Shown: positions 13,204-64,000 of the stretch, piece by piece
Position numbering within the stretch: position 1 is the stretch's first letter
Layout of the letters: each line of letters begins with the position of its first letter
Assembly: GCA_965261215.1 (NCBI GenBank)
Contig: CBDHDT010000100.1
Location: 56,905-120,904 of the forward strand
Source of the DNA: Ekhidna sp.
GTDB lineage: Bacteria; Bacteroidota; Bacteroidia; Cytophagales; Cyclobacteriaceae
Reading direction: 5' to 3'
Length of the DNA: 64,000 nt
Made by a program: the position numbers and the translations under genes
Notes under the pieces: generated by a model
What the model was told of the DNA's origin: nothing
Database searches by the model: none
What the model saw: the letters and a program-made list of their open reading frames with translations, nothing else

Positions 13204-16200
13204 ACTTTTAGGAGAAAAACAAGTTTTTGTTAATATTTCCCCCATTCTACTGGTTTGATCAAAAGCAGTTGTTTAAACAAAACCAAATTTTACTCAAATT
13301 TACCCTTTTCAAACATTTTAACAAAAACAATCTTTTTGAGTATTTCAGTGCTCCTTTCTGAGATAGTCAAAATTTGGACAAAAAAGAGAAGTTCACTGTG
13401 AATTTTCCCGAAAATGCTTCAAAACAACAGTAAAGCTTAGTTTAGCTGTATGTAGCCTACCTTGAGGAGAAAAACAAAAATTTTCTTAATATTTCCCCCA
13501 TTTTACTGGTTTGATTAAAAGCAGTTGTTTAAACAAATCCTGATTTTCCTCAGGATTTTGCCCTTTTCAAAGTTGTTAAGAAAAACAAATTTTTGAGTAC
13601 TTCGGTCCTCTGTTCTGAGATTATCATACTTGACTAAAAAGAGAAGTTCACTATGAATTTCTCCAAAAATGCTTCAAAACAACAGAAAAGCATAGTTTAG
13701 CTCTATGTGGCCTACTTTCAGAAGAAAAACAAGTTTTTGTTAATATTTTACCCATTTTACTGGTTTGATCAAAAATATTTGTTTAAACAAATGCATATTT
13801 TCCTCAGGATTTGCCCCTTTTCATTCTTGTTAAGAAAAAAAAAATCTGAGTATTTCAGTTCCCCTTTCTGAGAGAGTTAATTATTTGACTAAAAAGAGAA
13901 GTTCTCTGTGAATTTCCCCCAAAATGCTTCAAAACAACAAAAAAAGCATAGTTTAGCTGTATGTAGCCTAACTTGAGGAGAAAAACAACTTTTTCTTAAT
14001 ATTTCCCCCATTTTACTGGTTTGATTAAAAGCAATTGTTGAAACAAATCCAGATTTTTCTCAGGATTTGCTCCTTTTAAAAGTTGTTAAGAAAAATAAAT
14101 TTTTGAGTATTTCGGTCCTCTGTTCTGAGACGGTCATTTTTGGACTAAAAAGAGAAGTTCACTATGAATTTCCCTAAAAATGCTTCAAAACAACAGAAAA
14201 GCATAGTTTAGCTGTAGGTGACTCACTTTGGGGAGAAAAAACAGCTTTTGTTATCATTTGCCACCTTTTACTGGTTTGATAAAAAGAATTGTTTAAACAA
14301 ATCCAAATATTCCTCAAGATTTACTCTTTTCAAACATTTTAAGAAAAAAAAACTTTCTAAATATTTCAGTGCTCCTTTCTGAGATAGTCACTTTTTGGAA
14401 TAAAAAGAGAAGTTCACTGTGAATTTTCCAGAAAATGCTTCAAAACAAAAGAAAAGCATATTTTTACTGTATGTAGCACACTATGGAGAGAAAAACAAGT
14501 TTTTATTAATATTTTCCCAATTTTAATGGTTTGATAAAAAAAATTGTTTAAAAAAATTCTGATTTTCCTCAGGATTTGCCGCTTTTTAAAACTTGTTTTG
14601 AAAAACAAATTTTCTGAATATTTCTGTGCTCTTTTCTGAGATAGTCAATTTTTGGACTAAAAAGAGAAGTTCACTGTGAATTTCCCTGAAAATGTTTCAA
14701 AACAACAGAAAAAATAGTTTAGCTGTATGTGGCTCACTTTTAGGATAAAAACAAGTTTTTTTATATTTCCCCCATTTTACTGGTTTGATCAAAAACAGTT
14801 GTTTAAACAAATCCAAATTTTCCTCATGATTTACATTTTTCAAACATTTTAACAAAAAAAATTTTTTTGAGGATTTCAGTGCTCCTTTCTGAGATAGTCA
14901 AAATTTGGACAAAAAAGGGAAGTTCACTGTGAATTTTCCCGAAAATGCTTCAAAACAACAGAAAAGCATAGTTTAGCTATATGGCCCACATTGGGGAGAA
15001 AAACTGTATTTATTAATATTTGTCACCTTGTACTGGTTTGAACAAAAAGAATAGTTTAATCAAATCCAAATTTACCTCAGGATTTACCTTTTCCAACATT
15101 TTAAGGAAAAAAAACTTTCTGAGTATTTCATTGCTCCTTTCTTAGATAGTTACTTTTTTTACTAAAAAGAGAAGTCTCTGTGAATTTCCCCCAAAATGCT
15201 TCATAACAACAGAAAAGTATAGTTTAACTGTATGTGGCTCAGATTGGGAAGAAAAACAGTTTTTGTTATTATTTGTTCCCTTTTACTGGTTTGACCAAAA
15301 TCTTTGGTTTAAACAAATCCAAATTTTCCTCAGGATTTGCCCATTTTCAAATTTGTCAAGAAAAAAAATCTTCTGAGTATTTCAGTGCTCCTTTCTGAGA
15401 TAGTTACTTTTTTGACTAAAATGAGAAGTTCGCCGTGAATATCCCCAAAAATGCTTAAAACAACAGAAAAGCATAGTTTCTCTGTACGTGTCTCCACTTT
15501 GAGGAGAAAAATAGGTTTTTGTTAATATTTCTTACCTTTTACTGGTTTGATCATAAACATTTGTTTAAATAATCCAAATTTTCCTCAGGATATACACTTT
15601 TCAAACCTTCTAAGAAAAACAGACTTTTTGAGTATTTCAGTGCTCCTTTCTGAGATAGTCAAAATTTGGATTAAAAAGAGAAGTTCACTGTGAATTTCCC
15701 CGAAAATGCTTCAAAACAACAGAAAAGTATAGTTTAGCTTGTATGTGGCTCACTTTGGGGAGAAAAACAGTTTTTATTAATATTTGTCCCCTTTTACTGG
15801 TTTGAACAAAAAGAATTGTTTAATCAAATCCAAATTTACCTCAGGATTTAGTCTTTTCAAACATTAAAAAAAAAAAAACTTTCTGAGTATTTAAGTGCTC
15901 CTTTCTGAGATAGTCACTTTTTGGAATAAAAAGAGAAGTTCACTGTGAATTTTCCCGAAAATGCTTCAAAACAACAGAAAAGCATAGTTTAGCTATATGG
16001 CCCCACATTGGGGAGAAAAACTGTATTTATTAATATTTGTCACCTTGTACTGGTTTGAACAAAAAGAATTGTTTAATCAAATCCAAATTTACCTCAGGAT
16101 TTACCTTTTCCAACATTTTAAGGAAAAAAAACTTTCTGAGTATTTCATTGCTCCTTTCTTAGATAGTTACTTTTTTTACTAAAAAGAGAAGTCTCTGTGA

Positions 16201-19200
16201 ATTTCCCCCAAAATGCTTCAAAACAACAGAAAAGTATAGTTTAACTGTATGTGGCTCAGATTGGGAAGAAAAACAGTTTTTGTTATTATTTGTTCCCTTT
16301 TACTGGTTTGACCAAAATCTTTGGTTTAAACAAATCCAAATTTTCCTCAGGATTTGCCCATTTTCAAATTTGTCAAGAAAAAAAAATCTTCTGAGTATTT
16401 CAGTGCTCCTTTCTGAGATAGTTACTTTTTTGACTAAAATGAGAAGTTCGCCGTGAATATCCCCAAAAATGCTTAAAACAACAGAAAAGCATAGTTTCTC
16501 TGTACGTGTCTCCACTTTGAGGAGAAAAATAGGTTTTTGTTAATATTTCTTACCTTTTACTGGTTTGATCATAAACATTTGTTTAAATAATCCAAATTTT
16601 CCTCAGGATATACACTTTTCAAACCTTCTAAGAAAAACAGACTTTTTGAGTATTTCAGTGCTCCTTTCTGAGATAGTCAAAATTTGGATTAAAAAGAGAA
16701 GTTCACTGTGAATTTCCCCGAAAATGCTTCAAAACAACAGAAAAGCATAGTTTTGCTTGTATGTGGCTCACTTTTGGGAGAAAAACAGTTTTTATTAATA
16801 TTTGTCCCCTTTTACTGGTTTGAACAAAAAGAATTGTTTAATCAAATCCAAATTTACCTCAGGATTTAGTCTTTTCAAACATTAAAAAAAAAAAAACTTT
16901 CTGAGTATTTAAGTGCTCCTTTCTGAGATAGTCACTTTTTGGACTAAAAAGGGAAGTTCACTGTGAATTTCCCCAAAAATGTTTCAAAAAAACAAAAATG
17001 CATAGTTTAGCTGTATGTGGCCTACTTTCAGGGGAAAAAACCAGTTTTTATTAATATTTCACCCATTTTACTGGTTTGATCAAAAATATTTGTTTAAACA
17101 AATCCATATTTTCCTCAGGATTTGCCCCTTTCCAAACTTGTTAAGAAAAACAAACTTTTTGAGTATTTCAGTGCTCCTTTCTGAGATAGTCAAAATTTGG
17201 ATTAAAAAGAGAAGTTCACTGTGGATTTCCCCGAAAATGCTTCAAAACAACAGAAAGCATAGTTTAGCGGTATGTGGCTAACTTTGGGGGGGGGGGAAAC
17301 AGTTTTTATTAATATTTGTCCCCATTTACTGGTTTGAACAAAAAGAATTGTTTAATCATATCCAAATTTACTTCAGGATTTAGCCTTTTAAAAACATTAA
17401 AAAAAACAAAAAAAATCTGAGTATTTAAGTGCTCCTTTCTGAGATAGTCACTTTTTGGACTAAAAAGTGAAGTTAATTGTGAATTTCCCCAAAAATACTT
17501 CAAAACAACAGAAAAGCTTAGTTTAGCTGTATGTGGCCTACTTTCAGGAGAAAAACAATTTTTTATTAATATTTCACCCATTTTACTGGTTTGATCAAAA
17601 ATATTTGTTTAAACAAATCCATATTTTCCTCAGGATTTACCCCTTTCCAAACTTGTTAAGAAAAACAAACTTTTTGAGTTTTTCAGTGCTCCTTTCTGAG
17701 ATAGTCAAAATTTGGACTAAAAAGAGAAGTTCACTCTGAATTTCCCCGAAAATGCTTCAAAACAACAGTAAAGCATAGTTTAGCTGTATATGGCCCACAT
17801 TGGGGAGAAAAATCGTATTAATTAATATTTGTCCCCTTTTACTGGTTTGAACAAAAAGAATTGTTTAATCAAATCCAAATTTACCTCCGGATTTACCTTT
17901 TCAAACATTTTAAGAAAAAAATACTTTCTGAGTATTTAAGTGCTCCTTTCTGAGATAGTCACTTTTTTTTACTAAAAGAGAAGTTCTCTGTGAATTTCCC
18001 CAAAAATGCTTCAAAACAACAGAAAAGTATAGTTTAACTGTATGTGGCTCAGATTGGGGAGAAAAACATTTTTTGTTATTATTTGTTCCCTTATACTGGT
18101 TTGACCAAAATCTTTTGTTTAAACAAATCCAAATTTTCCTCAGGATTTACCCTTTTCAAACATTTTATGAAAAACAAACTCTTTTTTTTAGCATTTCAGT
18201 GCTCCTTTCTGAGATAGTCATATTTTGGACTAAAAACAAAAGTTCTCTGTGAATTTTACCTAAAATGCTTCAAAACAACAAAAAAGCATAGTTTAGCTCT
18301 ATGTGGCTCACTATGAGGAGAAAAACAAGTTTAGTTAATATTTCCCTCCTTTTACTGATTTGATCAAAAAAAATTTTTTAAACAAATCCAAATTTTTTTC
18401 AAGATTTACCCTTTTTAAATATTTTAAGAAAAATCCTTTCTGAGTATTTCAGTGCTCCCTTATGAGATAGACCCTTTTTGGACTAAAAGGAGAAGTCCAC
18501 TGTGAAATTCCCCCAAAATGCTCCAAACAACAGAAAAGCATAGTTTATCTGTATGTATCTCACTTTCAGGGGGAAAAAATTTTTTTTTTTAATATTTCAC
18601 CCATTTTACTGGTTTGATCAAAAACATTTCTTTTAAACAAATCCAAATTTTCCTCAGGATTTGCCCATTTTCAAATTTGTCAAGAAAAACAAATTTTCTG
18701 AGTATTTCAGTGCTCCTTTCTGAGATAGTTACTTTTTTGACTAAAATGAGAAGTTCGCCGGGAATATCCCCAAAAATGCTTAAAACAACAGAAAAACATA
18801 GTTTCTCTGTACGTGTCTCACTTTGAGGAGAAAAACAGGTTTTTGTTAATATTTCTTACCTTTTACTGTTAGATCATAAACATTTGTTTAAATAATCCAA
18901 ATTTTCCTCAGGATGCTTCAAAACAACAGAAAAGCATAGTTTAGCTGTATGTGGCCTACCTTGAGGAGAAAAACAAATTTTTCTTAATATTTCCCCCATT
19001 TTACTCGTTTGATCAAAAAAAGTTGTTTAAACAAATCCAGAATTTCCTCAGGATTTTCCCCTTTTCAAACTTGTTAAGAAAAAATAAATTTCTATGTATT
19101 TCTGTTCTCTGTTCTAAGATTATCATTTTTGGACTAAAAAGAGAAGGTCACTGTGAATTTTTCCGAAAATGCTTCAAAACAACAGAAAAGCATAGTTCAG

Positions 19201-29200: not shown

Positions 29201-31447
29201 CCAGTAAAAGGGGACAAATATTAAAAAAACTGTTTTTCTACCCAATGTGAGCCACATACAGCTAAACTATGCTTTTCTGTTGTTTAGAAGCATTTTTGGG
29301 GAAATTCACTGAGAACTTCTCTTTTTTGTCCAAAATTTAACTATCCCAGAAAGGAGCTCTGAATACTCAGAAAGTTTGTTTTTCTTAACAAGTTTGAAAA
29401 TGAGCGAATCATGAGGAAAATTTGGATTTGTTTAAACATATGTATTTGATCAAATCAGTAGAATGGGTGAAATATTAACAAAAACTTGTCTTTCTCCTCA
29501 AAGTGAGCCACATAACAGCTAAACAAACCAGTAAAAGGGGACACATATTAACAAAAATTGTTTTTCACCCCATAGTAAGCCACACACAGCTAAACTGTGC
29601 TTTACTGTTGTTTTGAAGCATTTTCTGGAAAATTCACAGTGAACTTCTCTTTTTAGTCCAAAAATTTACTATCTCAGAACAGAGCACAGAAATACTCAGA
29701 AAGTTGTTTTTTTCTTAACAAGTTTGAAAAGTGGCAAATCCTGAGGAAAATTTGGATTTGTTTAAACAACTGTTTATGATCAAACCAGTAAAAGGGGATA
29801 AATATTAACAAAAACTGTTTTTCTCCACAAAGTGAGCCACATACAGCTAAACTATGCTTTTCTGTGGCTTTGAAGCATTTTGGGGGAAATTCACAGAGAA
29901 CTTCTCTTTTTAGTCAAAAAATGACTATCTCAGAAAGGAGTATTGAAATACACTGAAATTTATTTTTCTTAACATGTTTGAAAATGGGCAAATCCTGAGG
30001 AAACTCTGGATTTGTTTAAACAACTGTTTTTGATCAAACCAATAAAATAGGACAAATATTAACAAAAACTTGTTTTTCTCCTCAAAGTAGGCCACATAAA
30101 GCTAAATGTGGCTTTTCTTTTGCTTTGAAGTATTTTTGGGAAAATTTACAGAGAACTTCTCTTTTTAGTCAAAAAGGTGGGTCTCAGAAAGGAACATTAA
30201 ACACTCAGAAAGTTGTTTTTCTTAAAATGTTTGAAAAGAGTAAATCCTGAGGAATATTTGGATTTGTTTAAACAACTGTTTTTGATCAAACCAGTAAAAG
30301 GGGACAAATACTATGCTTTTCTGTTGTTTTGAAGCATTTTCGGTAAAATTCAGAGAGAATTTCTCATTTTAGTCCAAAAAGTAACTATCTCTGAAAGGAG
30401 CATTGAATTACTCAGAAATTTTTTTTTTTTAATGTTTGAACAGGTTAAATCCTGAGGAAAATTTAGATTTGTTTAAACAACTGTTTTGATCAAACCAGTA
30501 AAATGGGGGATATATTAATTTAAAAAAAATGTTTTTCTCCTCAAAGTGAGCCACATACAGCTAAACTATGCTTTTCTGTTGTTTTGAAGCATTTTCGGGG
30601 AAATTCACAGAGAACTTCTCTTTTTAGTCCAAAATGTGACTATCTCAAAAAGGAGCCCTGAAATATTCAAAAAGCTTGTTTTTCTTAAAATATTTGAAAG
30701 GGGTAAATCCTGAGAAAAATTTGGATTTGTTTAAACAACTGTTTTTGATCAAACAAGTAAAAAGGGACAAATATTTAAAAAAAACTGTTTTTCTACACAA
30801 TATGAGCCACATACAGCTAAACTATGCTTTTCTGTTGTTTAGAAGCATTTTTGGGGAAATTCACAGAGAAATTATCTTTTTTGTCCAAAATGGAACTATC
30901 TCAGAAAGAAGCACTGAAATACTCAGAAAGTTTGTTTTTCTTAAAATATTTGAAAAGGGTAAATCCTGAGGAAAATTTGGATTTGTTTAAATGATTGTTT
31001 TTGATCAAACCAGTAAAATGGGGGAAATAAAAACTTGTTTTTCTCCTCAAAGTTAGCTATATACAGCTAAACTATGCTTCTCTGTTGTTTTGAAGCATTT
31101 TTGGGAAAATTCAGTGAACTTTCCTTTTTAGTCCAAAAAGTAACTATCTCAGAAAGGAGCTCTGAAATACACTGAAATTTTGTTTTTCATAAAATGTTTG
31201 AAAAGTGTAAATCCTGAGGAAAGTTTGGATTTATTTAAACAATTGTTTTTGATCAAGCCAGTAAAAGGGAATAAATATTAACAAAAACTGTTTTTCTCCC
31301 AAAAGTGAGCCACATACAGCTAAGCTATGCTTTTCTGTTGTTCTGAAGCATTTTCGGGAATATTCACAGTGAACTTCTCTTTTTAGTCAAAAAAATGACT
31401 ATCTCAGAACAGAGCACAGAAATACTCAGAAAGTTTGTTTTTTTTAA
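20228..31447 (+). repeat. Same satellite, block 3a, forward orientation
   Basis: Forward monomers resume at caaaccagtaaaaggggacaaatattaac (20227/20228) and continue to the TTAA at 31444-31447. Confidence 0.95.
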
Positions 31448-32197
31448 GGGGGGGACCACCCCATTTTTCCCGAAACTTTCATTTTTTTGGTAGCTGTCAT
31501 AACTTTTTTTCCCTTTCTTCTGTGCAAATAATTTTTATACCAGCTTGTTGCTTATTGTGTGTGCTTTAAGATGATATAAAAAAAGTCTCTATAGGCATAT
31601 TTTCTTAGTAGATATATCCAAACACGCAAGGGTTTCTCACAACAAAAAAAATCCTCCTAATTTGTGGCAAAGATAACTCAAAGGCGCCTTGACCGACGCG
31701 CCCACAAATTGGTCTGAGGGTAGCTAACGCACTTAGCTGTGATACTGACGAGTCAGAATTTTTTTCCGGTGAACCTCCCCTCGAGTTCTAGTGTTGAAAA
31801 GAGGCGGACCGCGAAAAATTGGCGCAAATTTCCGCGGTCCGCCTCTTTTCAACACTAGAACTCAGGGGAGGTTCACCGGAAAAAAATTCTGACTCGTCAG
31901 TATCACAGCTAAGTGCGTTAGCTACCCTCAGACCAATTTGGGGGCGCGTCGGTCAAGGCGCCTTTGAGTTATCTTTGCCACAAATTAGGAGGGGTTTTTT
32001 TGTGAGAAACCCTTGCGTGTTTGGATATATCTACTAAGAAAATATGCCTATAGAGACTTTTTTTATATCATCTTAAAGCATACACAATAAGCAACAAGCT
32101 GGTATAAAAATTATTTGCACAGAAGAAAGGGGAAAAAAGTTATGACAGCTACCAAAAAAAAACTGAAAGTTTCGGGGAAAAATGGGGTGGTCCCCCC
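31448..32197. mobile_element. Palindromic (long-hairpin) non-autonomous element, copy 1, inserted in a satellite monomer
   Basis: The left arm gggggggaccaccccattttt...gaggcggaccgcg and right arm cgcggtccgcctc...aaaatggggtggtcccccc are reverse complements, with only a few mismatches seen. The loop is ~18 nt (aaaaattggcgcaaattt, centre ~31822). The element interrupts the monomer at cttaa|caagtttgaaa. Confidence 0.85.
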
Positions 32198-32825
32198 TCA
32201 AGTTTGAAATGGGACAAATCCTGAGGAAAATTTGGATTTGTTTAAACAAATGTTTTTGATCAAACCTGTAAAATGGTGGAAATATTAACAAAGATTTGTT
32301 TTTCTCATCAAAGTGAGCCACATACAGATAAACTATGCTTTTCTGTAGTTTTGAAGTATTTTTAGGGAAATTCACAGAGAACTTCTCTTTTTAGTCAAAA
32401 AATTAACTATCTCAGAAAGGAGCACTGAAATACTCAGAAATTTTTTTTTCTTAACAAGTTTGAAAATGAGCAAATCCTGAGGAAAATTGGATTTGTTTAA
32501 ACAAATGTTTTTGATCAAATCAGTAAAATGAGTGAAATATTAACAAAAACATGTTTTTCTCCTCAAAGTGAGCCACATACAGCTAAACTATGCTTTTCTG
32601 TTGTTTTGAAGCATTTTCGGGGAAATTTAAGGAAACTTCTCTTTTTAGTCCAAAAAGTAACTATCTCAGAAAGGAGCTCTGAAATACTCTGAAAGTTTGT
32701 TTTTCTTAAAATGTTTGAAAAGGGTAAATCCTGAGGAAAGTTTGGATTTATTTAAACAATTGTTTTTGATCAAGCCAGTAAAAGGGGACAAATATTAACA
32801 AAAACTGTTTTTCTCACAAAAGTGA
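32198..32825 (+). repeat. Same satellite, block 3b (last ~2.5 monomers); the array ends near 32825
   Basis: The monomer sequence resumes at caagtttgaaatgggacaaatcctgagg. Homology stops after ...aaaactgtttttctcacaaaagtga. Confidence 0.9.
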
Positions 32826-33834: not shown

Positions 33835-34500
33835 CCTCCCAAAAAAAAAGTTTACAGCTAAAACTCACATTGGCAGCTGCTTAACTTTCTAAATGGTGGT
33901 TCGGCCACTATTACCATTAAAAAGACTCCACGAGTGCCGAAATCGTTCACTAAGGTAGTAAACAGGCAGTGTAAAAAAAAACCTTCCTTCTTAAAATCTT
34001 TGTTTGTTTGTTCAATAATCTTCGTTCGCATAGCTGGCTTACAATAGGTCCTCTCATCATAATTTTAGTACTAAAAGACTCCAAATGTTCCAATAAATAT
34101 CAATCACTGCTCCATTTCACAATCCAGTTAAGCCAAAAAAAAATATGACAAAAATGGTTAAGTATTGTCAGACCACACTTAGGTTGAATATTCGTATCAC
34201 AACAAATAACTCATATTTAGTTCAGTCTATTTTGTTTGTGCAGTTCTCACTCCAGGTCAACTATTAAAATGTTCAATGGAGGCCATAGCTGATCATTTGC
34301 CAAAATATCTGCAGTATGTTCTCCTGTGCAATGCCAAGTTCTGGAAGCTGCCCTACATGGGTGCAGTCCGCAATAGCAACAAGATATGGTATAATTTTGC
34401 AGTGGACAATATAGTGTACATGGGTAGAGTTACCAATACATATCATGTATCTATCGATAATGATATGTGTAGCATAAAGCAACAATAAATAGTTTTAAAA
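33835..34500 (-). repeat. Copy of dispersed repeat family X, which carries an exon-8-like block and a single 29-bp motif
   Basis: 33835-34020 aligns with 47935-48120 (ctaaactcaca.tggca, tctaaatggtggtt.ggcc, ctaaggtagtaaa). 34030-34120 is the reverse complement of 53400-53500. 34290-34480 is the reverse complement of 53080-53270 (ccatatcttgtt...gactgcacccatg). Confidence 0.6.
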
Positions 34501-34504
34501 AGTA

Positions 34505-34615
34505 TTAAATGCCTAGGAGCCATCCACTAATCTGCTCACATTTGATGAAAGCTAACAGAAACGCATCTCTATGCCTCTTCATGTCCCCATAGTCCTCTAC
34601 TTCTCCACTGCTCAA
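34505..34615 (-). CDS. Candidate terminal coding exon (36 aa plus stop), product unknown
   Basis: The signal is acag|TTGAGCAG...GGCATTTAA. Translation: LSSGEVEDYGDMKRHRDAFLLAFIKCEQISGWLLGI*. The paralog at ~58660-58765 keeps EDYRDMERLRDVFLFAFIKCEHVSGWILGI* but carries a 2-nt deletion near its 5' end. Confidence 0.3.
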   Translation of the reverse strand: MSSGEVEDYGDMKRHRDAFLLAFIKCEQISGWLLGI

Positions 34616-35308
34616 CTGTAATAGCAGAAACAAACAAAAAAAAATACTTGAAAAAGAGCAAAATAAGTCTTATTTGTATAGAATCATACGATTCAAGTCC
34701 AATTTATCGGAACAATTGTACGCTTACTAGTCGGGTAATTGCATGAGGTGAAGCCAAGTGAAATTTTGACTGTTACAAGTATTTTTATTCCCAAATAATA
34801 GACCCAATTCTTATTCCTGAAAAAAGTTGCAACTATAAAAAAAAAAACCTGAAATTAAGTGTATAGCCAATGGTTAATAATTAGACCAATCTTATGACAG
34901 TATACTGCTTCCTGATAGCAGTATTAGCTCTCTACTTATCATTCAAATATTTATTAAGGTCTATTGCTTACTGAGCAAATGAATGAGTGCCAGGAAGCCA
35001 TGGAACATGTGACACATCTATTCAGCAGCACACTAACTCCAGCATCATTACTACATTTACCACATAGTACACCTTGAGATCAAGAAGATGTAGAGTTAGT
35101 GGATGAGGTGGACGAGGAGGAGTAGGAGGAATGATGTGGAAGAGAATGTGGAGGAGAATGAGGAGAAAAAGGAGAAGAAGAAGGGAAGAGGAAGATGAGA
35201 AGGAAAACAATGGTGGAGTGGGTCTGACAAACTTTTTTTTTAAGAGTCCAAATATGATTTCTAATGATTTTCATGCAATATTATACACTGGTTTGCTACG
35301 GGGCTCAC

Positions 35309-35495
35309 CTTCCCTACCACAGTTGCACTGGAAATCTGGGTCACTTTTTCTAAACTGGTACATACAGAGCTTGGAACTGCCATTTTTCCCAAGGCTATTC
35401 TCAAATGCACAGCGGTAATAGCCAGCAGGACAAATAGAAATGTATAGATTCACTTCGGCAGTGTCTGAAGGGTTGAAGGTTGCCCAAGTTCCATG
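35309..35495 (-). CDS. Candidate Cys-rich exon (187 nt); may be a gene-family fragment or pseudogene
   Basis: The signal is attag|CATGGAAC...GGGAAG|gtgagc. Translation: HGTWATFNPSDTAEVNLYISICPAGYYRCAFENSLGKNGSSKLCMYQFRKSDPDFQCNCGREG. I could not join it in frame to the next candidate exon. Confidence 0.35.
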
Positions 35496-35966
35496 CTAAT
35501 ATGCATATATATAGTATTTATAAAAAATGCACAGAATATGTTACGATTGCATAATTGTCAGGAATAGAGGGGGGAAAAATTTTGGCTATATGTTATAGTA
35601 GCTTGATTGTGGTACAAAACTATTTTTCAAGGATATATTCATGAGGACTTTGGACCATAACACATCATGCATGATCAGAATGCACTAGCTAAAAACAATT
35701 TTACTCCTTGTTCGCTGGCCTTCACTATGGAGCAAGATTACTTCTACTAACCATTATGCGATTTTTGACTTGATCTGCATGTAACTAAGCTGAACAAATT
35801 GGTGCAAAAACAGCCTATTTTTTTCTTAGCATAAAAGTGGCAAGACATAGTGCCAAAGTTTCTAGCAATCCACTGACAGCTATGGTATTCATCTAAGTGT
35901 AGAGGCACAAAATTATCTTCAAAATATCATTCTGCAACAATGGAGCATTCATGTACATGCATGTGC

Positions 35967-36065
<99 letters not shown>

Positions 36066-36439
36066 ATAGCAGAGTTTTATTTACTACACACACATGCAGA
36101 ACTGATCAGTATAATACCGATAATGTGGAAAACAGGCTGGAGAGACATCTAGAAAACACTGTTCTCTAGCTGTCTTCCATTATCCATAAACTGGGTAACT
36201 TAGCTGTTAGTGCTAGCTCCTATGATTTTAAACCAATTTGTCCTTAGTTATTTAATGTGTTTAAATGTCAAAAACATCAAGCACATTAGCACTCAAGACA
36301 TCAGATAGCAGCAAAGAAAGATGTGAAAATGAGCAGATAATGTCTAGTACACATGGCATTTGCGAAAACCATAACCTTTTCGGCTACTTCTGTTATTGGC
36401 AAGCGAAGCAAGCCTTCAGTGGGTAGTGGATGGAAAACT

Positions 36440-39100
36440 ACGTATTGCCTGGTATGGCCGATGCAGTATATATGTGCCATACATTCATACATTACGGACT
36501 CGACATTAAAAAAGGAAATGGTCATCTTAGAAAATCCGCCATAGATGGGCGAGATTCATCCGATGAAGAAAAATGTTACAGATTCTAAGGCCAAAGTAAA
36601 GAAACATGGATGAACATGCAGCATGCTTGATTAAGTGCTGTTAGGGAAAGGATGCTGGAGTTTTATTCAGACTAGAATACTCATTACATCAACACACTAG
36701 AATTGGATGTGACAAGTTCTTGATAGTGGAAACTATTTTCGATCTTGCTAAGGTAAACACAGTTTCTTGCATGTGTGCAGCTGCTCTCTCTTTCGGACAA
36801 TGAGTAGACGCTGAATAGTTAAGCCTATACAGAAAGAATAACTTGTGCATATAGTCAATAGTTGTGCTAATGATATAGAGTATACAGAAAACAATAAACA
36901 GTGTCAAAAGTGCAAACTTTCAATTGAACAAATTCTTGTCAGCTTCTGCATGGTCTTCACTTAGTTTTCTGATAATTTCTGCAGAAAGTACTGCTTGCAG
37001 ACCTAACTCTTAATGTGTTGCTCTTCTCATCCTCATAGAAAGCAGTTTCAAACAAAAATACTTACTGCCACATGAACATTTCCATTTCAGAATTTGTCAT
37101 TCCGTTGTGTTGTAGGCATCAGGTTGTTCTATCATACACCTGTAAGGAATGCAGTAAAGGAATGCAAATCTTGGCTACATCCCCATATTACTATTCAACC
37201 ACTTACAACAGTTGTGAATTTCTAAGGAACATAATTCTCGACTGCATCACATTTCACAATCAAAGAAAATCTCTGCAAATCAAATTCTTGATGATGGAAC
37301 TATTTCCAATCCAGCTAAGGTAAGCACATTTTCTTGCGTGTTTACTGCAGCTCTCTCTCTCTCTCGAATAGTGACTACATAACTGGAGAGTTTACCATAT
37401 CTAGAAACCATAACTGATGCAGCTAATGATATAGAGCAAACTGAAAACAATAAACAGTTTTTAAATATGCAAACTATCATTTCAACAATTTCTGCAGAAA
37501 GCACTGCCTGATGCCCCAACACTTAATGTGGTACTCATCTTTAAGGAAAGCAGCTTCCAAATAATTTTAACAAAACAACTTCCACATGCATATTTCCATT
37601 TCAGAATTTTTAATCCCATTACTTTGTCTGGTATCTGGTTGTTCAATCTTGCATGTCTGTGAAATATCTAAAAACCTACAATTCTTGGTTACTTCCCCAT
37701 ACTACAGTCCAACCACTTACACAAGTTGTGAATCTCTAAGAAATTCTTGGCTGTATCACATCCCACAATCGTAATGAAGACATCTACATATCACATCATA
37801 AATCAGTATTGGGTTAGCTCTTCAGCTTGTCCATACCAACGTTGTGGCCAGAGCAATGTCGATTTTTTTTGCCTGTGTAGTAGTTAAGGCTAGGCAAATA
37901 TCTAGAAAATAGAACAAAAATCTTGACAATACTGACATTACTGCCTTATGACATCACCCCTAAAATGCTTTCCTATTTGTTTCTAAGTAAAGTAGAAACT
38001 CTAACACAATGTAATTCACTCTCAGCTATATTTCCATATGTGCATTTCTATCTATATATACTATATATTGCCATACGTCCATAACCCAAAGAGTGCACAG
38101 AAGATTTTACGGACTAGACTAAAAACGGAAACTGTTGTCTTAGAAAACCAGCCTTATATAAGCTAGATTCATCAATGATGAAGAAATGCACATGGCCTGC
38201 TTGTTTAATAGCTGTCACGGAAAGCACACTGATGTTTTATTCTGAGTAATCTAATCAATTCATCACAATACTGGCATTGGCTGTGATACAAGTTCTTGAT
38301 AGTAGAAACTATTTTCAATCTTGTTGAGGTAGACACTGTTCCTTGTATGTGTGCAGCCTCTCACTCTCTTTCAGACAACGAGTATGGACAGGCTGGATAG
38401 TTTAGCATACATAAAAAAACATAATTGATGCATGTAATCAATACTTTGTTAATGATATAGAGCATAGTGAAAGCAATAAACAGTATCAGCTTCAGCATGG
38501 TCTTCCCTTGGTAATCTGATAATTTCTGCAGAATGAACTGCCTGATGAGCTCACTCTTAATGTGGTGCTCTTCTCATCTTCAAGGAAAGCAGTTTCTAAT
38601 TACTCGTAACAAAACAACTATTTCCAAATGTACATTTCAGAATTTTTCATCCCATTATGCTGTGGGTATCAGGTAAGGAATACAGTAAAAACATAAAATT
38701 CATGGCTACTTTCCCATATTAAAATCCAACCAATTACACCAGTTCTGAATCTATAAGGAACATATAATTCTCAACTGCATCACATCTCACAATCATAAAA
38801 AATACATCTACAAGTCAATTCATAAATCGGTACTGGGTTAGCTCGTCAGCTTCCTTACTAAGGTAATGGCCAGAGCAATGGCTATGATTTAGCCTGAGCA
38901 GTAGTTAAGGCTAAGAAAATATCTAGAATAATAAAACAATAATCCTGACAATTCTGACAACCAATACTGCCTTATGACATCCTTCTCCTTATGACATCAC
39001 TCTCCTTATGACATCACTCTCCTGACATCACACTTTGTGTTTTTTCATGTAAGTAAAGTAGCTACTTTTACATAAATCAAAGCAATTTACTCTCAGCCAT
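36440..39100 (+). repeat. Nested tandem repeat in duplication copy A: ~0.5-kb units inside a ~1.5-kb higher-order period
   Basis: The block ...ttcttgatagt.gaaactattttc.atcttg..aaggta.acac...aataaacagt...ttctgcagaa.g.actgc...catttcagaattt... recurs near 36710, 37280 and 38290. The 36440-36710 segment recurs at 38050-38290. Confidence 0.75.
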
Positions 39101-39639
39101 ATTTCCATATGTGTTTTTCTGTCTCACAACCAGTATTTGCTGGCATGGCAGTATTTACTCACCTTCAATGTTTGAATGGCAATACTAGTATGTTATAGAT
39201 GCTAGCTGAAAGGCTGCACAACTGTGGACGAGGTAGTGCATGCTATTGCTGCCGGAGGGTTCCTGTCCCTTTTCAGCCACGAAGATGCAGACTATGTCCA
39301 CACTCAGAAACTGGCTACTACTCTTGAGTATGCTACATTTATGATCGACCAGCTGAAAGTCAAGCAGCAGTACAGCAACTACAGACCACACAGACTTTGG
39401 TACAACTGAAGTGATCAACGGCAAAGGAACTACCACGATGAAGGACACTGGAGGAGAAACTACAATCCTTCATCACCTAGACGAGATCAACCAAGCATAC
39501 TCTCTCTCAACCTGTCAACAGGATACTGATTCTAAACACAGCAGCAACCAGGATAGCAAAACTGTGGTGTGCATGGCTGTGGGAAAATGAGCCACAAACA
39601 TCCGCATGACAGATCCGGAGGATAATATCTCCCACACCT

Positions 39640-40249: not shown

Positions 40250-41345
40250 GGCTATTCCTGGGAGGATGACCTTCTTATGCACCATGACATGGACAAACTT
40301 GGTACCAACCGTATCAGAATTGTGCTGCCAGAATCTAGACCCCACACAGTTTTAAAAATGGCACACTTGGCTCTCACTACTTTGCAATAAAGATGGCATA
40401 AGCTCGAATTAGACAGCATTTCAGTTGACCAGTACATGAGTATTGCTGTACCTGCCCCGAGTGCCAATGTGCTGCTCCATACATGCACAGCCATGTCCCT
40501 CTCAACCATAGCCAATCACCGTGACACATTTTCCAAAATATCCTTTGAAATAATAGGACTTCTACCCTGGACCAAATCTGGTTACTAGTATTGGTTGACC
40601 AGAATGTGTTGCACAAGCAAATACCCATGGGCGATCCCACTCAAAAGAGTCACTGCTGAGATCATAGCTGAGGCTATGATGGAGGTATTCTCTAGAACCG
40701 GCCTCCCAGAAGAAATTCTTACTGACCATGGCATTATTTTTGTTGGTCATATTATACCCAATCTGTTACCTGTTAGGTATTGACCATCTGAAGATGTCTC
40801 CCTCCAGCCCCAATATGCATGCTGAAGCACTGGCATGCCTAACTCAAGGCTATACTAAGGAAGGCCACTGAAGACAAACAGAATTTGGATGGTACCATAA
40901 GTTCTCAGTGTTGTCTTACTGAGATAACCCCCACACCATGATGAGACATGCCTCATTTGAGCTCATCTATGGCCAGAACACCAGAGGCCCTCTGAAAGTG
41001 CTCTAGTCCACATGGTTGACAGGAGAAACCTATAAAACTACTGTGGTAGACTAATTTAGGGTTTCAAAGCACAGGATGGAAAACATGGCAGCCATTGTCA
41101 GCCCATGAGAACAGGCAGCCAAAGAAAGAAGTCTTAAGACAGGACAGTAACATGCAGGGAGTTCCCACCTGGATCCATGGTCTTGATCCGAGTGTTTCAT
41201 CTCACAGGCAAGCTGGTGGACTTTTGAAATGGCAATATGATATTACACAGAAGGCCTCTCCACTCAATTACCGGATCGCTATTTCTGGGAGAGTCAACTG
41301 TTCAAGAATGCCACACATTAGCATGTTGAAATCTTGGCGGACAGT
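40250..41345 (+). pseudogene. Integrase remnant (gypsy-type) of the retroelement
   Basis: Translated motifs across frameshifts: YSWEDDLLMHH...NRIRIVLPESRPHTVLKMAH; KYPWAIPLKRVTAEIIAEAMMEVFSRTGLPEEILTDHGIIF; SFELIYGQNTRGPLKVL; MPHISMLKSW. Confidence 0.7.
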
Positions 41346-41399
41346 CGACAACAGAAGACAACCAGGAAAACCCTTCTCAACCACCTGGCCTCTATCTCT

Positions 41400-42400
41400 C
41401 ATTGCACTGACCGAGCAGCAAGCAGAGCAACTGCAGGCTCTCCTGCCCCATTTTCCACAAGTCCTTACCACCGCACCTGGTCTTGTTACCTTTGTCAGCA
41501 AGGAATCAGCACCAATGAAGCTCTACCTATAAGGACTGCACCCACTGTCTGGCCCCAGCCAAGAAAGACCAGCTATGATTGGAGATACACACCATATGAG
41601 AGGCTGGCATCCTAAACTATCACTAAGTTTTTGATTGTCCTCTCTCCTACTAGTATGGAAAAGAGACAGTAGAATTAGACTATATGTGGACTTCAAATAA
41701 CCACGGTCCTGGACCCGTATTTGATGCCAAGGATAGATCATATCATAGACGACAATGTAGCGGGTAATGGACGTGTTAATCCCATGGGTTGCAAGGTGGC
41801 AGTTATCCAGAGACATTGCTAAACCCAAGACGAAATCTGACACAACTCCTTCTTAGGACTCACTGGGTATTATCAAAAGTTTGTTCCTCAATTCGCCCAG
41901 TACTCGTTAACACTCACTGCATCTACTACTAAAGCAGCCACAGAGACAATTGAGTGGACGGATGTGATGAATTCTGATTTTGTATACTCAAAAAAAATCT
42001 CTCTCTACTTTACACTCTCTTGCTATCCCCAGATACACACAAATTTTCATATTGCAGGCGGATGCTTCAATCAGAGTTCTGGGTGCTGTACTCACAGTTA
42101 TCAGGGACAGAGTCAAGATGCAGATGACCATTTACTCCCAACAGCTGCTGCCAGCCGAAATGTTACTTTCCACTGAATTGAAAGGCCTGGCTATTATTTC
42201 CGCAGTTGAATATTTTAACTATCACTTGATTTGCCAACCCTTCTCCATCCAAATTAACTACCATGCCTATTATTCCTGCCACTACCAAACAATTCAACAG
42301 ATCCCTGGCAATTTGGGCATTGCGACTACAGTACATCTTCACCACCTATAGGCTCGGCAATGAGATTGCCAATGTGGGTGCTCAGCAGGCCAGGACAGAC
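41400..42400 (+). pseudogene. RT (N-terminal part, core apparently deleted) plus RNase H remnant of the retroelement
   Basis: Translated motifs: LTEQQAEQLQALLPHFPQVL; KRDSRIRLYVDFK (KKDGS.R.CVDYR-like); SLGIIKSLFLNSP (FLGL.gYYR-like); FILQADASIRVLGAVL...STELKGLAIISAVEYFNYHL. No YxDD motif was seen between these blocks. Confidence 0.6.
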
Positions 42401-46187: not shown

Positions 46188-46927
46188 GGGGGGGGGTCTA
46201 TCCCAAGCTTCCGAAATTGTTTTTTTTTGGTTTTTTACCTGTCATAACTTTTTTCCCCTTTACTCTGTGCAAATAATTATTATACCAGCTTGTTGCTTAT
46301 TGTGTGTGCTTTAAGATGATATGTAAAAAGGCTCTATAGGCACTTTTTCTTAGAAGATATAGCCAAACACGCAAGGGTTACTCAAAAAATGGCACTTCCT
46401 AATTTATAACATGTCTAATTTCGAGGTGCCTTGAGCTACAGACCCCAAACTTCCTGTGTGGCTTGCTAACACCCTAAGTTGTGATATGACTCAGCCATAA
46501 TTAAAACGCGGTGAAGTGTTGAATAGATATGAGACACTTTATTTCCAACCCCGGCAAAATCCACGGAAATCTGTGACCCCGCCTCTTCCAATCACCATAA
46601 CTCAACATTGCTTCACGGAAGAAAAAAATTGACTGAGTCATATCACAGCTGAGGCTTATGGGAAGCCACAACACAAGTTTGGGGTCTGTAGCTCAAGGCA
46701 CCTGGTAATTAGACATGTTATAAATTAGGAAGTGCCATTTTTTGAGTGACCCTTGCGTGTTTGGCTATATCTTCTAAGAAAAAGTGCCTATAGAGACTTT
46801 TTACATATCATCTTAAAGCACACACAATAAGCAACAAGCTGGTATAATAATTATTTGCACAGAGTAAAGGGGGGAAAGTTATGACAGGTACAAAACCAAA
46901 AAAAAAATTTCGGAAGATTGGGATAGA
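46188..46927. mobile_element. Palindromic MITE family, copy 2 (divergent and degraded), inside the long intron between exons 7 and 8
   Basis: The left end reads ggggggggtctatcccaagcttccgaaatt and the right end aatttcggaagattgggataga, which has lost the terminal C-run. It shares the ~150-bp subterminal core (ctgtcataactttt...ccaaacacgcaagggt) on both arms. The inner arms pair only partly. Confidence 0.75.
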
Positions 46928-48804: not shown

Positions 48805-49112
48805 TTGTATAAGTGAATTAGCAGATGGAAACCAACAGCAATTGCAGCAACTATCAATGGAATGTAATAAACTGGAGCAAGTAGATAAACAATGTTACTG
48901 ACATTGCTTATGTGGCTATTGCAAATACCATCAACAGAATCTGCAGGGAATAGGAATAGGTCCTGTTTAACCTGGGGAAGTGCCTCCAGTAGGAGTAATG
49001 TCAGGAGGTTGAGTTGGAGTAGAATATCCAGAATATTGGCAGTGTTGGATTTGTATGGGAGGTTGTAGGTATACAGAAATATGCTGATCACGAGAACAAG
49101 TGCAGCAAAGAC
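48805..49112 (-). CDS. Same gene, exon 7
   Basis: The signal is ttaataatag|GTCTTT...TATACAA|gtaagc. Translation: VFAALVLVISIFLYTYNLPYKSNTANILDILLQLNLLTLLLLEALPQVKQDLFLFPADSVDGICNSHISNVSNIVYLLAPVYYIPLIVAAIAVGFHLLIHLY(K). If unspliced, the frame stops at the TAA at 48801-48803. Confidence 0.65.
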
Positions 49113-49662
49113 CTATTATTAATAAAATTATAAGTATATGATGAACACTAGATTGTTCATACCATTAGATTACTTCATCATTACAAATATTCATAAACTT
49201 TTTTTCTTGTTTGACAGGGCAAGCGAGAAAAAAAAAGGAATTTTTTTAAATGGCTGATAATTGCAACTACAGTCATGGACAGCCTCTTCTAGGCCTTTAC
49301 TGCTGTTTCTGGAAGCTGGTCTTCTTAGAAAAGCTTCATAGGCACCTGTGTTTATCAGGAATCATTTAAAGGATGTGTTCCTAGTGGATTTCCTTGCTGT
49401 AAGTTATGTGGTGCTGCATAGCTTTTGTTTTCTTACATCAATGGAGCAAATCTTTGAAAAACTGCAGTTTATTGTACTTGCATTAGAATATTATGAAAAG
49501 ATTTTTCTGGAAAAACGTTATAACCATTAACACAAAAATTAAGTTTGGGTCAATAGGTTAATTATATGAAGCACTTCCATGTTGTCATTAGGTGTTACAC
49601 ATAGTTATAGAGATTGACTTGCTTTGTAACTGTAATATTACTACTAAAATATAAAATAATAC

Positions 49663-49788
49663 CGTATTTCTTGGAAATGGGATTAGAGCCAGGAGAAACA
49701 AAAATCTTCTTCCAAGTTCCACACCATACCAAAACTTCAGGTCATCCTTGAAATATTTCGTAAATGGTTCCTTAAAATGCTTAGTGAA
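49663..49788 (-). CDS. Same gene, exon 6
   Basis: The signal is aattgcag|TTCACT...AATACG|gtatta. Translation: FTKHFKEPFTKYFKDDLKFWYGVELGRRFLFLLALIPFPRNT. Confidence 0.7.
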
Positions 49789-50279
49789 CTGCAATTTCTA
49801 TGAATTACGAGAGAATAACATATTTATTGACACAAGGTTAAATTACAGGTAGGAAAACAGCTGACCTTTCCTTCACATACAAAATACAAAATAATATGTT
49901 ATGCACATTTCTATACTATGCCACTAACAATGTAATGATAAAAATGCTAAACTCACAACAATCCATTGCAGCTGTTTAAATTGTCAGACTTTATTAGTAT
50001 GAGCTTATATATATATATATACATATTTGCTATGCATTTCACAGACATACAATTCTCAGACATAATTACAAAATGAATAAACTTTAATAAAAATATAAAT
50101 AGGTAAATAATTGTAAAACAGCCACTTGGTACAAAACAACCAGTACAGCAACAATCAAAAACAAAAATAAATATATCACTGCACAATTATTCTCTAATTG
50201 TTCATAAGGGCTTTAGATTTTTTTGAAAAGTGATCTCTTTTCGTAGACCCTATCACACATCAGCATCAACAATACTTAC

Positions 50280-52990: not shown

Positions 52991-53473
52991 TACATCAAGG
53001 GTAAGATAATTGGTGGAGGGTCGCCTAGATATTTATACAGTATTGTAACATTATATTGTTGCTGTACACAAGAGACAAACCAATATGATGCATTGTTGCT
53101 ATTGTTGACCATTCCAATGTTGTCCACTTCAGAACATACCATATCTTGTTATTATCATTGACTGCACCCATGCAGGGTCAGCTACGGCCTCCTTCAAGAA
53201 ATTGGTATCATTGCAGATAATACTACAGCAGATGTTTTAGTTGAGGATCAGTGATGGCCTCCTTTGACACGGTTATAGTTGAACAGAAGCAAAACCAAAC
53301 AGCTGTACTAAGCGTGAGTCATTCATTTGGGTGTGAAACATCAAATTAAGTGTGGTTTTTAAGATATTTACCTCTTTGTGCCAGTTTTTTCGGCTTTACT
53401 AATCAAGAAACGGAGTAGTCAGAGGCATTTATTGGAACATTTGGAGTTCACAGGCACTAAAATATGAAAGGAC
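52905..53473 (+). repeat. Family X, copy C1 (head plus body); its 29-bp motif is expanded into the adjacent minisatellite
   Basis: The head cttgtttcaagt...gtttgtttgttttgttgttt...tatagtt...tggagaactac is repeated at 54733-54815. The body is the reverse complement of 34030-34480. Confidence 0.6.
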
Positions 53474-54732
53474 CTATTGTACGTCAGTAATGATGAGAGG
53501 ACCTATTTTACGTCAGTTATGATGAGGGGGATATTGTATGCCAGTTATGTTGAGAGGACCGATTGTATGCTAGTTATGATGGGAGGACCTATTGTACATC
53601 ATTTATGATGAGGAGGATATTGTATGCCAGTTATGTTGAGAGGACTGATTGTATGCCAGCTATGATGAGTGGGTGTATTGTATGCCAGTTATGATGAGAG
53701 AACCTGTTGTGTGCCAGTCATGGTGAGAAGAGATTGTACGTCAGTTATATTGAGGGGACCTATTGTATGCCAGTTATGATGAGGGGAGCCTATAGTAAGC
53801 CAGTAATGATGGGGGGACCAATTATACGTCAGTAATGATGAATAGATCTATTGTACTCCAGTTATGATGAGAGGACCTATTGGAAACCAGTTATAATGAG
53901 GGGACCTATTGTATGCCAGTTATGATGAGAGGACCTATTGTATGCCAGTTATGATGAGTGGACTTTATGTGCGCCAGTTATGATGAGAGGACATATTGGA
54001 TGCCTGTTACGGTAAGGTTACCTATTGTACGCCAGTTATGATGAGTGCACCTATTGTATGCCAGTGATGAGGGGGCCTATTGAACGCCAGTTGAGAGGAC
54101 CGATTGTATGCAAGTTATGATGAGTGGACCTATTGTACTGCAGTTATGATCACGGGGCCTATAGTACACAAGTTAGGATGAGAGGGCCTATTGTGTGTCA
54201 GTTATAATGAGGGGGCGTTTTGTAAGCCAGTTATGATAAGTGGACTTATTGTGCATCAATTATGATGATAGGACCTATTGTATGCCAGTTATGATGAGGG
54301 GACCTCCAGCTCTGATGAGGGGATCTATTATACGCCAGTTATGATGAGGGGGCATATTGTATGCCGGTTATGATGAGAGGACCTATTGTATGCCAGTTAT
54401 GATGAGTGGACTTATTGTGTGCCAGTTATGATGCCAGTTATGATGAGTGGATCTATTGTATGCCAGTTATGATGAGAGGACATACTGTAAGCCAGTTATG
54501 ATGAGTGGACTTATTGTGCGCCAGTTATATTGTATGCCAGTTATGATGAGTGGACCTATTGTATGCCAGTTATGTTGAGGGGACCTATTGTAAGGTAGTT
54601 ATGATGAGGGGACCTATTGCATGCCAGTTATGATGAGGGGGTGTATTGTATGCCAGTTATGATGAGAGGACCTATTGTACGTCAGTAATGATGAGGGGAC
54701 CTATTGTACACCAGTAATGATGAGGGGGTGTA
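53474..54732 (+). repeat. Minisatellite with a 29-bp unit (ATGATGAGAGGACCTATTGTATGCCAGTT), about 43 units
   Basis: The unit recurs head-to-tail with point variants and a few partial units. There are no unique spacers. The array ends abruptly at ...gatgagggggtgtattc|ttgtttcaag. Confidence 0.9.
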
Positions 54733-55760
54733 TTCTTGTTTCAAGTTTTTTTAAATGTTTGTTTGTTTTGTTGTTTTTATAGTTGATTGATGGAGAACTA
54801 CTCAAAGATCAACAGCATGTACACATTCACCACAGCCTGTTTGATGATCCAATAATATAAATCATATACACCAATGATTTTATATTACACAGCAACTCAT
54901 ACTATATCTTGTTGCTAAGGTTGACAGTATCCATCAGACAACATTGTGTATTACATAAATCACTACTGTTGACTGTTCTTATAGATACTATAAGTTACAC
55001 TAATTTTTCTTGGCCAGGTTGTTGAATTGCTCCAAGTTTATATTTTACTCACCTTTTTCATAAAAGAATATGACTCTCGACCTGGCCAGTGACGGCTTAC
55101 TTCTTTGGTGGCAGGAAAATGCAGCAGCTGAAGATTGCAGCTGCGCACTTGGTAACAGTTGTACAGGAGAACCAAACAGAGTAGAGGATTAGCGAGAGCC
55201 TATTTAGTACTACGTAACTGTTTTCCAGGAGCAAGAACTCGACAAACCCACTGAACACAGGTCATAATTCTGAATATAATACAGCTCGTGTAGTCTTTAC
55301 TCAATTATTAAATTCTAAATATAAAAAACAGCCAACGAGATTTAGCTTGATTGTATTATCCACAAAACTGCTGACAAATCCATTTTACCTAATTTGATAA
55401 ACAGATTGGTTGATTCAATGCATTGGACAATTAGGAATATTCTGGTAATAAAATTATGACAAATGAACCTACTATACACAAGTTATGTTAGGCAAGAAAA
55501 ATAGATAAATAAATAGATAGCTAGATACAAGATCCAGAAGACCGAATTTCTTGCTTTTTAGGCTGACGATTTATTACCGTTGGGAAGGATTCAAGGCATG
55601 CTCAAACTGTTTGTTTTTTTTAGTTGAAATTGGTTAAAGTCACTGTTTTAGAAGCTGCCAAAGTTAGTTTTAGTTGAGATATAAGTAGAGTTTTATTTGG
55701 TGCCATCGTTTTGAAATAAGGGCCAAACCAATACATGGAGTGCTAACTCATTCCCTAATA
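54733..55760 (+). repeat. Family X, copy C2 (head, body, a single 29-bp-like motif at ~55456-55490, and tail)
   Basis: The head matches 52905-52990. The block gataaacagattggttgattcaatgcattggacaatt matches the reverse complement of 48185-48220. The tail 55500-55760 is the reverse complement of 33835-34020 and 47935-48120 (gctgccaaagttagttttag, ggccaaaccaa). Confidence 0.55.
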
Positions 55761-57953: not shown

Positions 57954-58234
57954 GGCTTGTGCTCACAGTTGCCAACGATAATATATAGGAAGATGGCCAC
58001 CCACATAAGAGCCTGCGACAAGGTAGTGGTCCACTTCATTTCTGTAAATTTAGGGTTATTGGTGGGCTGGAGTAGGGAGAGAGCAGATACCATCAAGACT
58101 ATTGGCCATCTTCATGGATGATGCCTGGAAATACCTCAAAAAAACTACACACCAGCGTTTGTCCATTGGTCTATGGCAAGTGAATGCTGGCATGTGGATT
58201 CTTTGCCTTCCTCCCATTCCCCTATGTTGGAGTG

Positions 58235-58285
58235 GCAGCTATAAATATGTGTTCAAATTTCGGTGGTTTCAGGCATAGACCCCCC
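58235..58285 (-). mobile_element. Solo right-terminus remnant (~50 bp) of the palindromic MITE family, exactly at the proximal boundary of duplication copy B
   Basis: gcagctataaatatgtgttcaaatttcggtggtttcaggcatagacccccc is the reverse complement of the terminus type seen at 4527-4568 and resembles the copy 3 ends. It is followed directly by aagcaaaaaaaaatatgg, which matches copy A ttaagccaaaaaaaaatatg. Confidence 0.6.
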
Positions 58286-59410: not shown

Positions 59411-59597
59411 CTTCCCTACCACAGTCGCACTGGAAATCTGGGTCACTGTTTCTATACTGGTACATACAGAGCTTGGAACTGCCATTTTTCTCCAGGCTAT
59501 TCTCAAATGCACAGCGGCAATAGCCAGCAGGACAAATAGAAATGTATAGATTCACTTCGGCAGTGTCTGAAGGGTTGAAGGTTGCCCAAGTTCCATG
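59411..59597 (-). CDS. Paralog of the candidate Cys-rich exon at 35309-35495
   Basis: It has the same length (187 nt), the same attag| and |gtgagc signals, and an intact ORF: HGTWATFNPSDTAEVNLYISICPAGYCRCAFENSLEKNGSSKLCMYQYRNSDPDFQCDCGREG. Five amino acids differ from copy A. Confidence 0.35.
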
Positions 59598-63850: not shown

Positions 63851-64000
63851 TTTCCATATGTGTTTTTCTGTCTCACAACCAGTATTTGCTGGCATGGCAG
63901 TATTCACTCTCCTTCAATGTTTGAATGGCATTACTAATATGTGATAACTGATATCACCAGAATGTAGCTTGGACATATGTGCCACTAACATAAAGATTAA

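Follow-up and report, generated by a model that had tools for sequence, protein, structure and literature searches.

Palindromic elements and their surroundings

Within the window, the whole stretch of 64,000 nucleotides analysed here, three palindromic elements are present at 31448-32197 (copy 1), 46188-46927 (copy 2) and 61536-62275 (copy 3), which is where the first-pass annotation had placed three full hairpin copies. Copy 1 is a 750-bp non-autonomous element lying within a 255-bp satellite. Its left arm carries, on the plus strand, a core (31494-31636) that is 91-99% identical to all other copies found, and the mirror core lies on the minus strand of the right arm (32006-32148). The element is preceded by the target site TTAA (31444-31447) and followed by a degenerate one that reads TCAA (32198-32201). 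Copy 2, an older element, has its cores at 46239-46379 (plus strand) and 46749-46887 (minus strand), contains an asymmetric centre of ~130 bp (46498-46629) and is without the right C-run terminus. In copy 3, a palindrome of 740 bp, the cores occupy 61583-61722 (plus strand) and 62091-62230 (minus strand), and the element is bordered by a TTAA target-site duplication (61532-61535 on the left, 62276-62279 on the right). Whole elements, centres and target sites are given without strand.

When each copy was compared with the window by blastn, its top non-self match was its own reverse complement. Arm-against-arm identity reached 95.6% in copy 1, 92.4% over 300 bp in copy 2 and 95.9% in copy 3, against 79%, 73% and 72% between the window copies in the same type of search. 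Gap-free global alignment gave self-symmetries of 98.1%, 89.4% and 96.7% for copies 1, 2 and 3, respectively, and the identity between the three window copies is 78-84%. The predicted fold of copy 1 is one hairpin of -665.7 kcal/mol, compared with -190 ± 7 kcal/mol for shuffled sequences (z = -68). Each copy had been described as essentially one long hairpin with arms of ~365 bp; this holds for copies 1 and 3, where the palindrome reaches nearly to the centre and only ~6-20 nt are imperfect, but not for copy 2, the arms of which pair over only ~300 bp. In the window there are 6 occurrences of a core 19-mer, for which 0.08 would be expected, and neither this count nor the fold can be put down to chance.

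The surroundings are rich in other repeats. An AT-rich array of the 255-bp satellite, with ~81% identity between units, extends from 2859 to 32825 and flips its orientation near 13200 and 20226. A ~5-kb repeat is present at 34134-39197 and again at 58289-63946, and comprises ~700-bp internal repeats (36610-37283, 37281-37956 and 38190-38818), with a similar sequence near 44183. At its left border, one copy has TTAA and the other adjoins a solo terminal fragment of the element family (58233-58283, minus strand), which ends in ...GACCCCCC. A second solo terminal fragment of the same, related subfamily (TTAA-AGGACTACACCTGAAACCACCGAAATTTGAACACATATTTATAG; 4528-4570, plus strand) lies inside one satellite unit, part of which it replaces; the two fragments are 100% identical over 35 bp and may be remnants of excision or of deletion. 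Between ~39500 and 42500 lies a degenerate Gypsy-type LTR retroelement with an RNase H domain (41980-42351) and a weak match to an integrase C-terminal domain (41095-41532). A 29-bp minisatellite of ~40 units occupies 53464-54734; a single inverted unit of it (34029-34062) is found again, together with ~380 bp of the sequence next to it, at 34034-34412.

Related copies, subfamilies and arm layout

Further copies were retrieved with a protein query, the ORF at 32073-32375 (minus strand), which spans satellite, terminus and core. This query returned ~60 short ORF 'proteins' with the C-terminal sequence ...SCHNFFPLSSVQIIFIPACCLLCVL, all of them located on long contigs in ENA metagenome assemblies. 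From one sample, ERZ26693861, we took nine loci of 10-20 kb (~185 kb together; elements and positions in them carry the prefix L), and found in them the same satellite and 16 further elements. Since one of these, L014_b, is 98.5% identical to copy 1, we read the contigs of this sample as those of the same or a sister species. A search with the core pattern gave no match in viral contigs and none in JGI metagenome contigs, and the 19-mer alone gave 5 metagenome matches, all of 20-28 nt, which we rejected as chance. In locus L008, a copy 1-like element with one arm partly deleted has been co-amplified three times with the satellite array (L008:10321-10976, 13517-14161 and 17972-18623).

The elements fall into subfamilies that are 94-98.5% identical internally and 76-88% identical to one another. 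Subfamily B comprises copy 1, L014_b and L008_b1-3; subfamily A, copy 3, L008_a, L010_a and L015_a; subfamily A2, L009_in, L011_a and L013_a; and subfamily C, copy 2, L014_a and L011_in. A further terminus type is shared by the two solo fragments of the window and by L009_out, L014 and L015, where it is joined to the core. Examples within a subfamily are copy 1 and L014_b (98.5%, as above), L008_a and L010_a (97.4%) and copy 3 and L010_a (95.4%); copy 3 is 94-95% identical to L008_a and L010_a, and copy 2 is 85-86% identical to L014_a and L011_in. The asymmetric centre of copy 2 is common to L014_a and L011_in, which it matches clearly better in one orientation, and is a trait of the subfamily and not private decay.

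This classification bears on the observation that had singled the elements out, namely that arms match far better within a copy than between copies. The contrast stands across subfamilies, but inside a subfamily the identity between two copies is about equal to that between the two arms of one copy, which is the outcome that had been named as one to refute the observation. The contrast arises because each window copy comes from a different subfamily: copy 1 from B, copy 2 from C and copy 3 from A. Among the origins that had been listed for the pattern, separate palindromic master copies are thus directly supported.

The self-symmetry of individual elements forms a continuous series (99.4, 99.2, 98.4, 98.1, 98.1, 97.9, 96.7, 96.0, 92.6, 89.4, 86.5, 81.8 and 81.1%), which indicates that insertions begin as near-perfect palindromes and then decay in place. 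In subfamilies A, A2 and B the centres of the palindromes fall at homologous positions. Subfamily B has a small asymmetry at the centre and subfamily C the ~130-bp one, so symmetrisation is incomplete. Two derivatives depart from the full-length form. L013_a is a 615-bp element that has lost the inner ~55 bp from both arms and is still 97.9% symmetric, and L010:2211-2582 amounts to a single exact arm that breaks off at the centre of the palindrome. This half element lies 65 bp beyond a ZMYM1-like hAT transposase pseudogene that carries a frameshift (L010:563-2145). Elsewhere, family members are often nested in one another or adjacent (L009:9891-11343, L011:15054-16518, L014:3725-4572 and L015:9314-10810).

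Alignment of the six arms of the window copies revealed a nearly invariant subterminal core of ~145 bp, close to the ~150 bp first proposed, together with the short conserved inner blocks that had been reported. Each arm consists of a variable terminus of ~45 bp, the strongly conserved core and a variable inner part of ~180 bp. The outer ~45 bp and the spacers had been said to differ strongly between copies while remaining complementary within each copy, and they do so; the outer 45 bp are nevertheless alignable and have a skeleton in common in all subfamilies (G-run, N8, ..CGAAAYTT.., GTAG). The terminal G-run, like the C-run that matches it, is 4 to 24 nt long and differs from copy to copy and even from one end of a copy to the other (for example, L011:10052-10805 and L011:15509-16234). 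Across the four subfamily consensi the core is 85-100% identical and the remainder 5-55%, and on account of this difference the core is a candidate for, and probably is, the cis-region needed for mobilisation. No repeated motifs resembling binding sites were found in the core. It is open in one reading frame, which ends in the same C-terminal sequence as the retrieved ORFs, followed by a stop. A core far better conserved than the termini is unusual for a miniature inverted-repeat transposable element (MITE), and could help to pin down the sequence recognised by a Kolobok-type transposase.

Target site, termini and superfamily assignment

The ~5-kb repeat provides a paralogous empty site for copy 3. 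Segment 34134-37526 aligns with 58289-61535 and segment 37522-39197 with 62275-63946, at 84-89% identity, and the alignments meet at a single TTAA (37523-37526). The empty site reads ...CAACAC-TTAA-TGTGGTACTC... and the filled one ...TAACTC-TTAA-[740 bp]-TTAA-TGTGGTACTC.... This demonstrates that the element was mobile and that its insertion duplicated the 4-bp sequence TTAA. Three further observations concern the target site. Firstly, the position in the 255-bp satellite at which copy 1 is inserted is a TTAA in neighbouring units. Secondly, L014_b is inserted at a TTAA within the core of another element, with a perfect TTAA on both sides. Thirdly, TTAA adjoins most other ends; L009_in is flanked by ATAA on both sides. 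A TA target, as in Tc1/mariner-like elements, was considered and rejected, since at most ends the bases flanking TA are also T and A; this reading (an element A-GGG...CCC-T) suits every TTAA site taken singly, and its exclusion is purely statistical.

All intact ends open with a G-run and close with a C-run. Clean copies read TTAA-GGGGGG, without an A, whereas TTAA-AA-GGGGGG is seen at some ends and TTAA-AGGAC in one fragment. The remark that these termini have the opposite polarity to those of piggyBac was correct, and it proved to be the key to identification. The combination of a TTAA target and 5'-RR...YY-3' ends sets Kolobok apart from piggyBac (PMC9587614, PMC6004289), and both features are found here: the TTAA target in the empty and filled sites of copy 3, in the nested L014_b and at most ends, and the purine-purine termini as GGGG..…..CCCC ends and, in one fragment, AGGAC. 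Hence the elements are assigned to Kolobok rather than to piggyBac, an assignment that we infer from the target site and the termini. piggyBac is the best-known TTAA-specific transposon, and MITEs derived from it would equally leave a TTAA duplication and a clean empty site. Their ends, however, are 5'-CC...GG-3' (PMC9587614), whereas the intact ends here are 5'-GG...CC-3', and no piggyBac transposase domain was present in any of the ORFs tested; we therefore hold membership of the piggyBac superfamily to be quite improbable.

The family shares several traits with the Kolobok elements of Xenopus. T2-MITE is a non-autonomous Kolobok element with TTAA and the motif AGGRR (PMC6004289); the TTAA target and purine-purine termini are common to both, although the termini read GGGGGG or AGGAC in the present family. 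The Xenopus elements likewise form several long-lived subfamilies (PMC6004289), and a palindromic Kolobok MITE, Kolobok-N2_XT, has already been described (PMC12676858). In addition, the short terminal inverted repeat of the autonomous XKol A5 of Xenopus, AGGGGAACTATC, resembles the GGGGGGACTATC ends found here. Sequence homology with Xenopus Kolobok is not detectable past the terminus, where it covers ~12 nt. The present elements further differ in being, from end to end, one palindrome with ~370-bp arms; their most conserved part is the 145-bp subterminal core and not the terminus, their G-run is hypervariable (4-24 nt), and their host is read as an AT-rich eukaryote and not a frog.

Long inverted arms that make up nearly the whole element, and that can be closer to each other within a copy than between copies, are also found in Foldback (FB-type) and other long-inverted-repeat transposons. 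In classical FB elements the arms are made up of tandem sub-repeats and the target duplications are longer. The present elements differ from Foldback in having a 4-bp TTAA duplication, a uniform size of ~740 bp and no tandem sub-repeats in the arms; no tandem repeats were detected within copies 1 and 3 by TRF at a score of 30.

We searched for an autonomous partner and for a Kolobok transposase (THAP, DDD/E, H2CH) in the window and in the nine related loci (~185 kb), and found neither. Among 27 ORFs from the window and the loci, Pfam identified no fitting transposase; the matches were to retroelement RNase H and, weakly, to DUF4371. The elements themselves contain only short ORFs (up to ~70 aa), and matched no Pfam family and, at the gathering threshold, no Rfam family. 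Two candidates for the partner were rejected. The ORFs beside the half element of L010 belong to the ZMYM1-like hAT pseudogene, the only transposase nearby, which is 47-48% identical to its best named relatives, proteins of Hydra vulgaris. The region inside the fragment at 58233-58283 does not recur at the other loci, and so is no autonomous element.

Taken as a whole, the family has the properties of MITEs: its elements are short (615-754 bp), code for nothing, carry terminal inverted repeats, duplicate their target site and exist in many copies of rather uniform make-up; a length of 740 bp is at the upper end of the usual 'miniature' range. We consider it probable that these are non-autonomous, MITE-like, cut-and-paste DNA transposons that insert at TTAA, have 5'-GG(G)n...(C)nCC-3' ends and derive from palindromic masters, that a Kolobok transposase encoded elsewhere mobilises them, and that their arms are copied from one another in the propagating lineage. 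The family is best filed as palindromic, TTAA-targeting, Kolobok-type and non-autonomous, and not as a new category of element; it is of an ordinary kind except for the way in which both halves change together, and it may already stand in Repbase or Dfam. For annotation, it is an abundant TTAA family that calls for masking, and several of the repeats, nested insertions and terminal fragments in the window are due to it.

Matched changes on the two arms

The first-pass annotation had called for a test of compensatory changes between the arms, and this test gave a clear outcome: differences between lineages are nearly always present on both arms. Among 326 ungapped arm columns, 133 show two or more different symmetric states, distributed as 29 of 39 columns in the terminus, 12 of 131 in the core and 92 of 156 in the inner part. 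RNAalifold analysis of nine elements yielded 352 pairs, 129 of which have changes on both sides, many of them transversions, while one-sided (wobble) states are very few. Independent mutation cannot account for ~130 matched changes; once selection on structure and conversion at resident copies are set aside as well (see below), the data call for a step in which one arm is rewritten from the other in the propagating lineage.

Such massive covariation on both sides, together with an extremely stable fold, could also be expected of a functional family of hairpin-RNA or siRNA genes, in which selection on the RNA or DNA structure maintains the hairpin by compensatory evolution, and matches to miRNA precursor models in Rfam seem to point the same way. 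These matches, obtained with an E-value threshold, fall below the gathering score, occur equally on the two strands and mirror nothing but the hairpin shape, and we rejected them as artefacts. In addition, all ~350 pairs are kept, including those in the poorly conserved and neutral spacers; the changes are exact complements, transversions included, with almost no G:U intermediates, which is the signature of DNA copying; older copies drop to 81-89% symmetry; and the copies sit in satellite DNA, within one another and beside TTAA duplications. Structure-preserving evolution by selection, one of the origins first listed, is thus disfavoured, and we find it scarcely credible. The pattern points instead to arm copying at the DNA level.

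Where this copying would take place can be narrowed down by comparing young and old copies. Arm-to-arm gene conversion acting on every resident copy, as in the large palindromes of sex chromosomes, would likewise make arms more alike than subfamilies are. However, self-symmetry decays continuously from 99.4% to 81%, and within a subfamily the arms of a copy are no more alike than two copies are. Moreover, in the older copies asymmetric private changes dominate over symmetric ones (76 versus 7 in copy 2, 73 versus 12 in L011_in). We regard conversion at resident copies as very doubtful. Copying in the propagating lineage would mean, in contrast, that each subfamily descends from a near-perfect palindromic master, that new insertions start symmetric and thereafter decay neutrally, and that one arm is repeatedly rewritten from the other in the lineage that propagates.

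Alternatively, each subfamily could have gained its palindrome anew when one end of a different, non-palindromic (autonomous) parent was duplicated by fold-back, in which case symmetrisation would not be ongoing. An exact single arm that ends at the centre does exist (L010:2211-2582), and young copies are perfect right up to the centre, as such an origin would have it. Yet the centre lies at the homologous position in A, A2 and B, and symmetric private changes are seen among close relatives inside a subfamily: L009_in has 18 of them and only 2 asymmetric ones. Furthermore, the neighbour of the half element is the unrelated hAT pseudogene and not a Kolobok-like gene, and no non-palindromic parent was seen in the window or the nine loci. 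A separate origin for each subfamily is on this evidence unlikely.

We therefore return to arm copying in the propagating lineage. Amplification through a single-stranded snap-back intermediate, which had also been suggested, is plausible: some arm copying is needed for masters to have stayed symmetric while diverging by 15-25%. The likeliest routes would be fold-back self-templated synthesis or the correction of a hairpin heteroduplex, and the copying could occur in active copies at times when gap repair, replication or transposition leaves them single-stranded. The symmetric central deletion of L013_a and the half element of L010 may be by-products of the kind that the processing of hairpins or folded-back strands should leave. 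We deduce the arm-copying step from the pattern of substitutions, and what we propose for its timing, its mechanism and its extent (whole arm or patches) reaches by inference beyond that pattern.

A bolder reading, which we put forward tentatively as a possibility rather than as a probability, is that the family effectively inherits a single arm. In active lineages the second arm would be made again at or between transpositions, either through self-primed synthesis on the folded-back strand or through repair of a snapped-back hairpin. The family would then evolve as ~370 nt of sequence shown in palindromic form, symmetric central deletions and exact half elements would be side products, and the 145-bp core would be the only part read by the transposase or the host. 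If true, this would be a distinct and self-correcting mode of propagation for a cut-and-paste MITE. With its subfamilies, its age series, its symmetric deletions and its half elements, the family offers a clean natural data set on the evolution of long DNA palindromes, and it could allow the frequency and completeness of arm rewriting, and any tie to transposition, to be measured.

The elements also constitute a large set of potential sources of long-hairpin RNA inside or near genes. If transcribed, they would yield a near-perfect dsRNA of ~365 bp, like the hairpin RNA and siRNA loci collected in LIRBase (PMC8728187), a likeness that is structural only. Copy 2 plausibly lies in an intron, judging from conserved exons that precede it on the minus strand (49660-49797 and 48810-49112). 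These two exons belong to a host gene that resembles those for multi-pass membrane proteins, and its homologues are detectable only as unnamed ORFs, 37-78% identical, that lie on contigs of eukaryotes within ENA metagenome assemblies.
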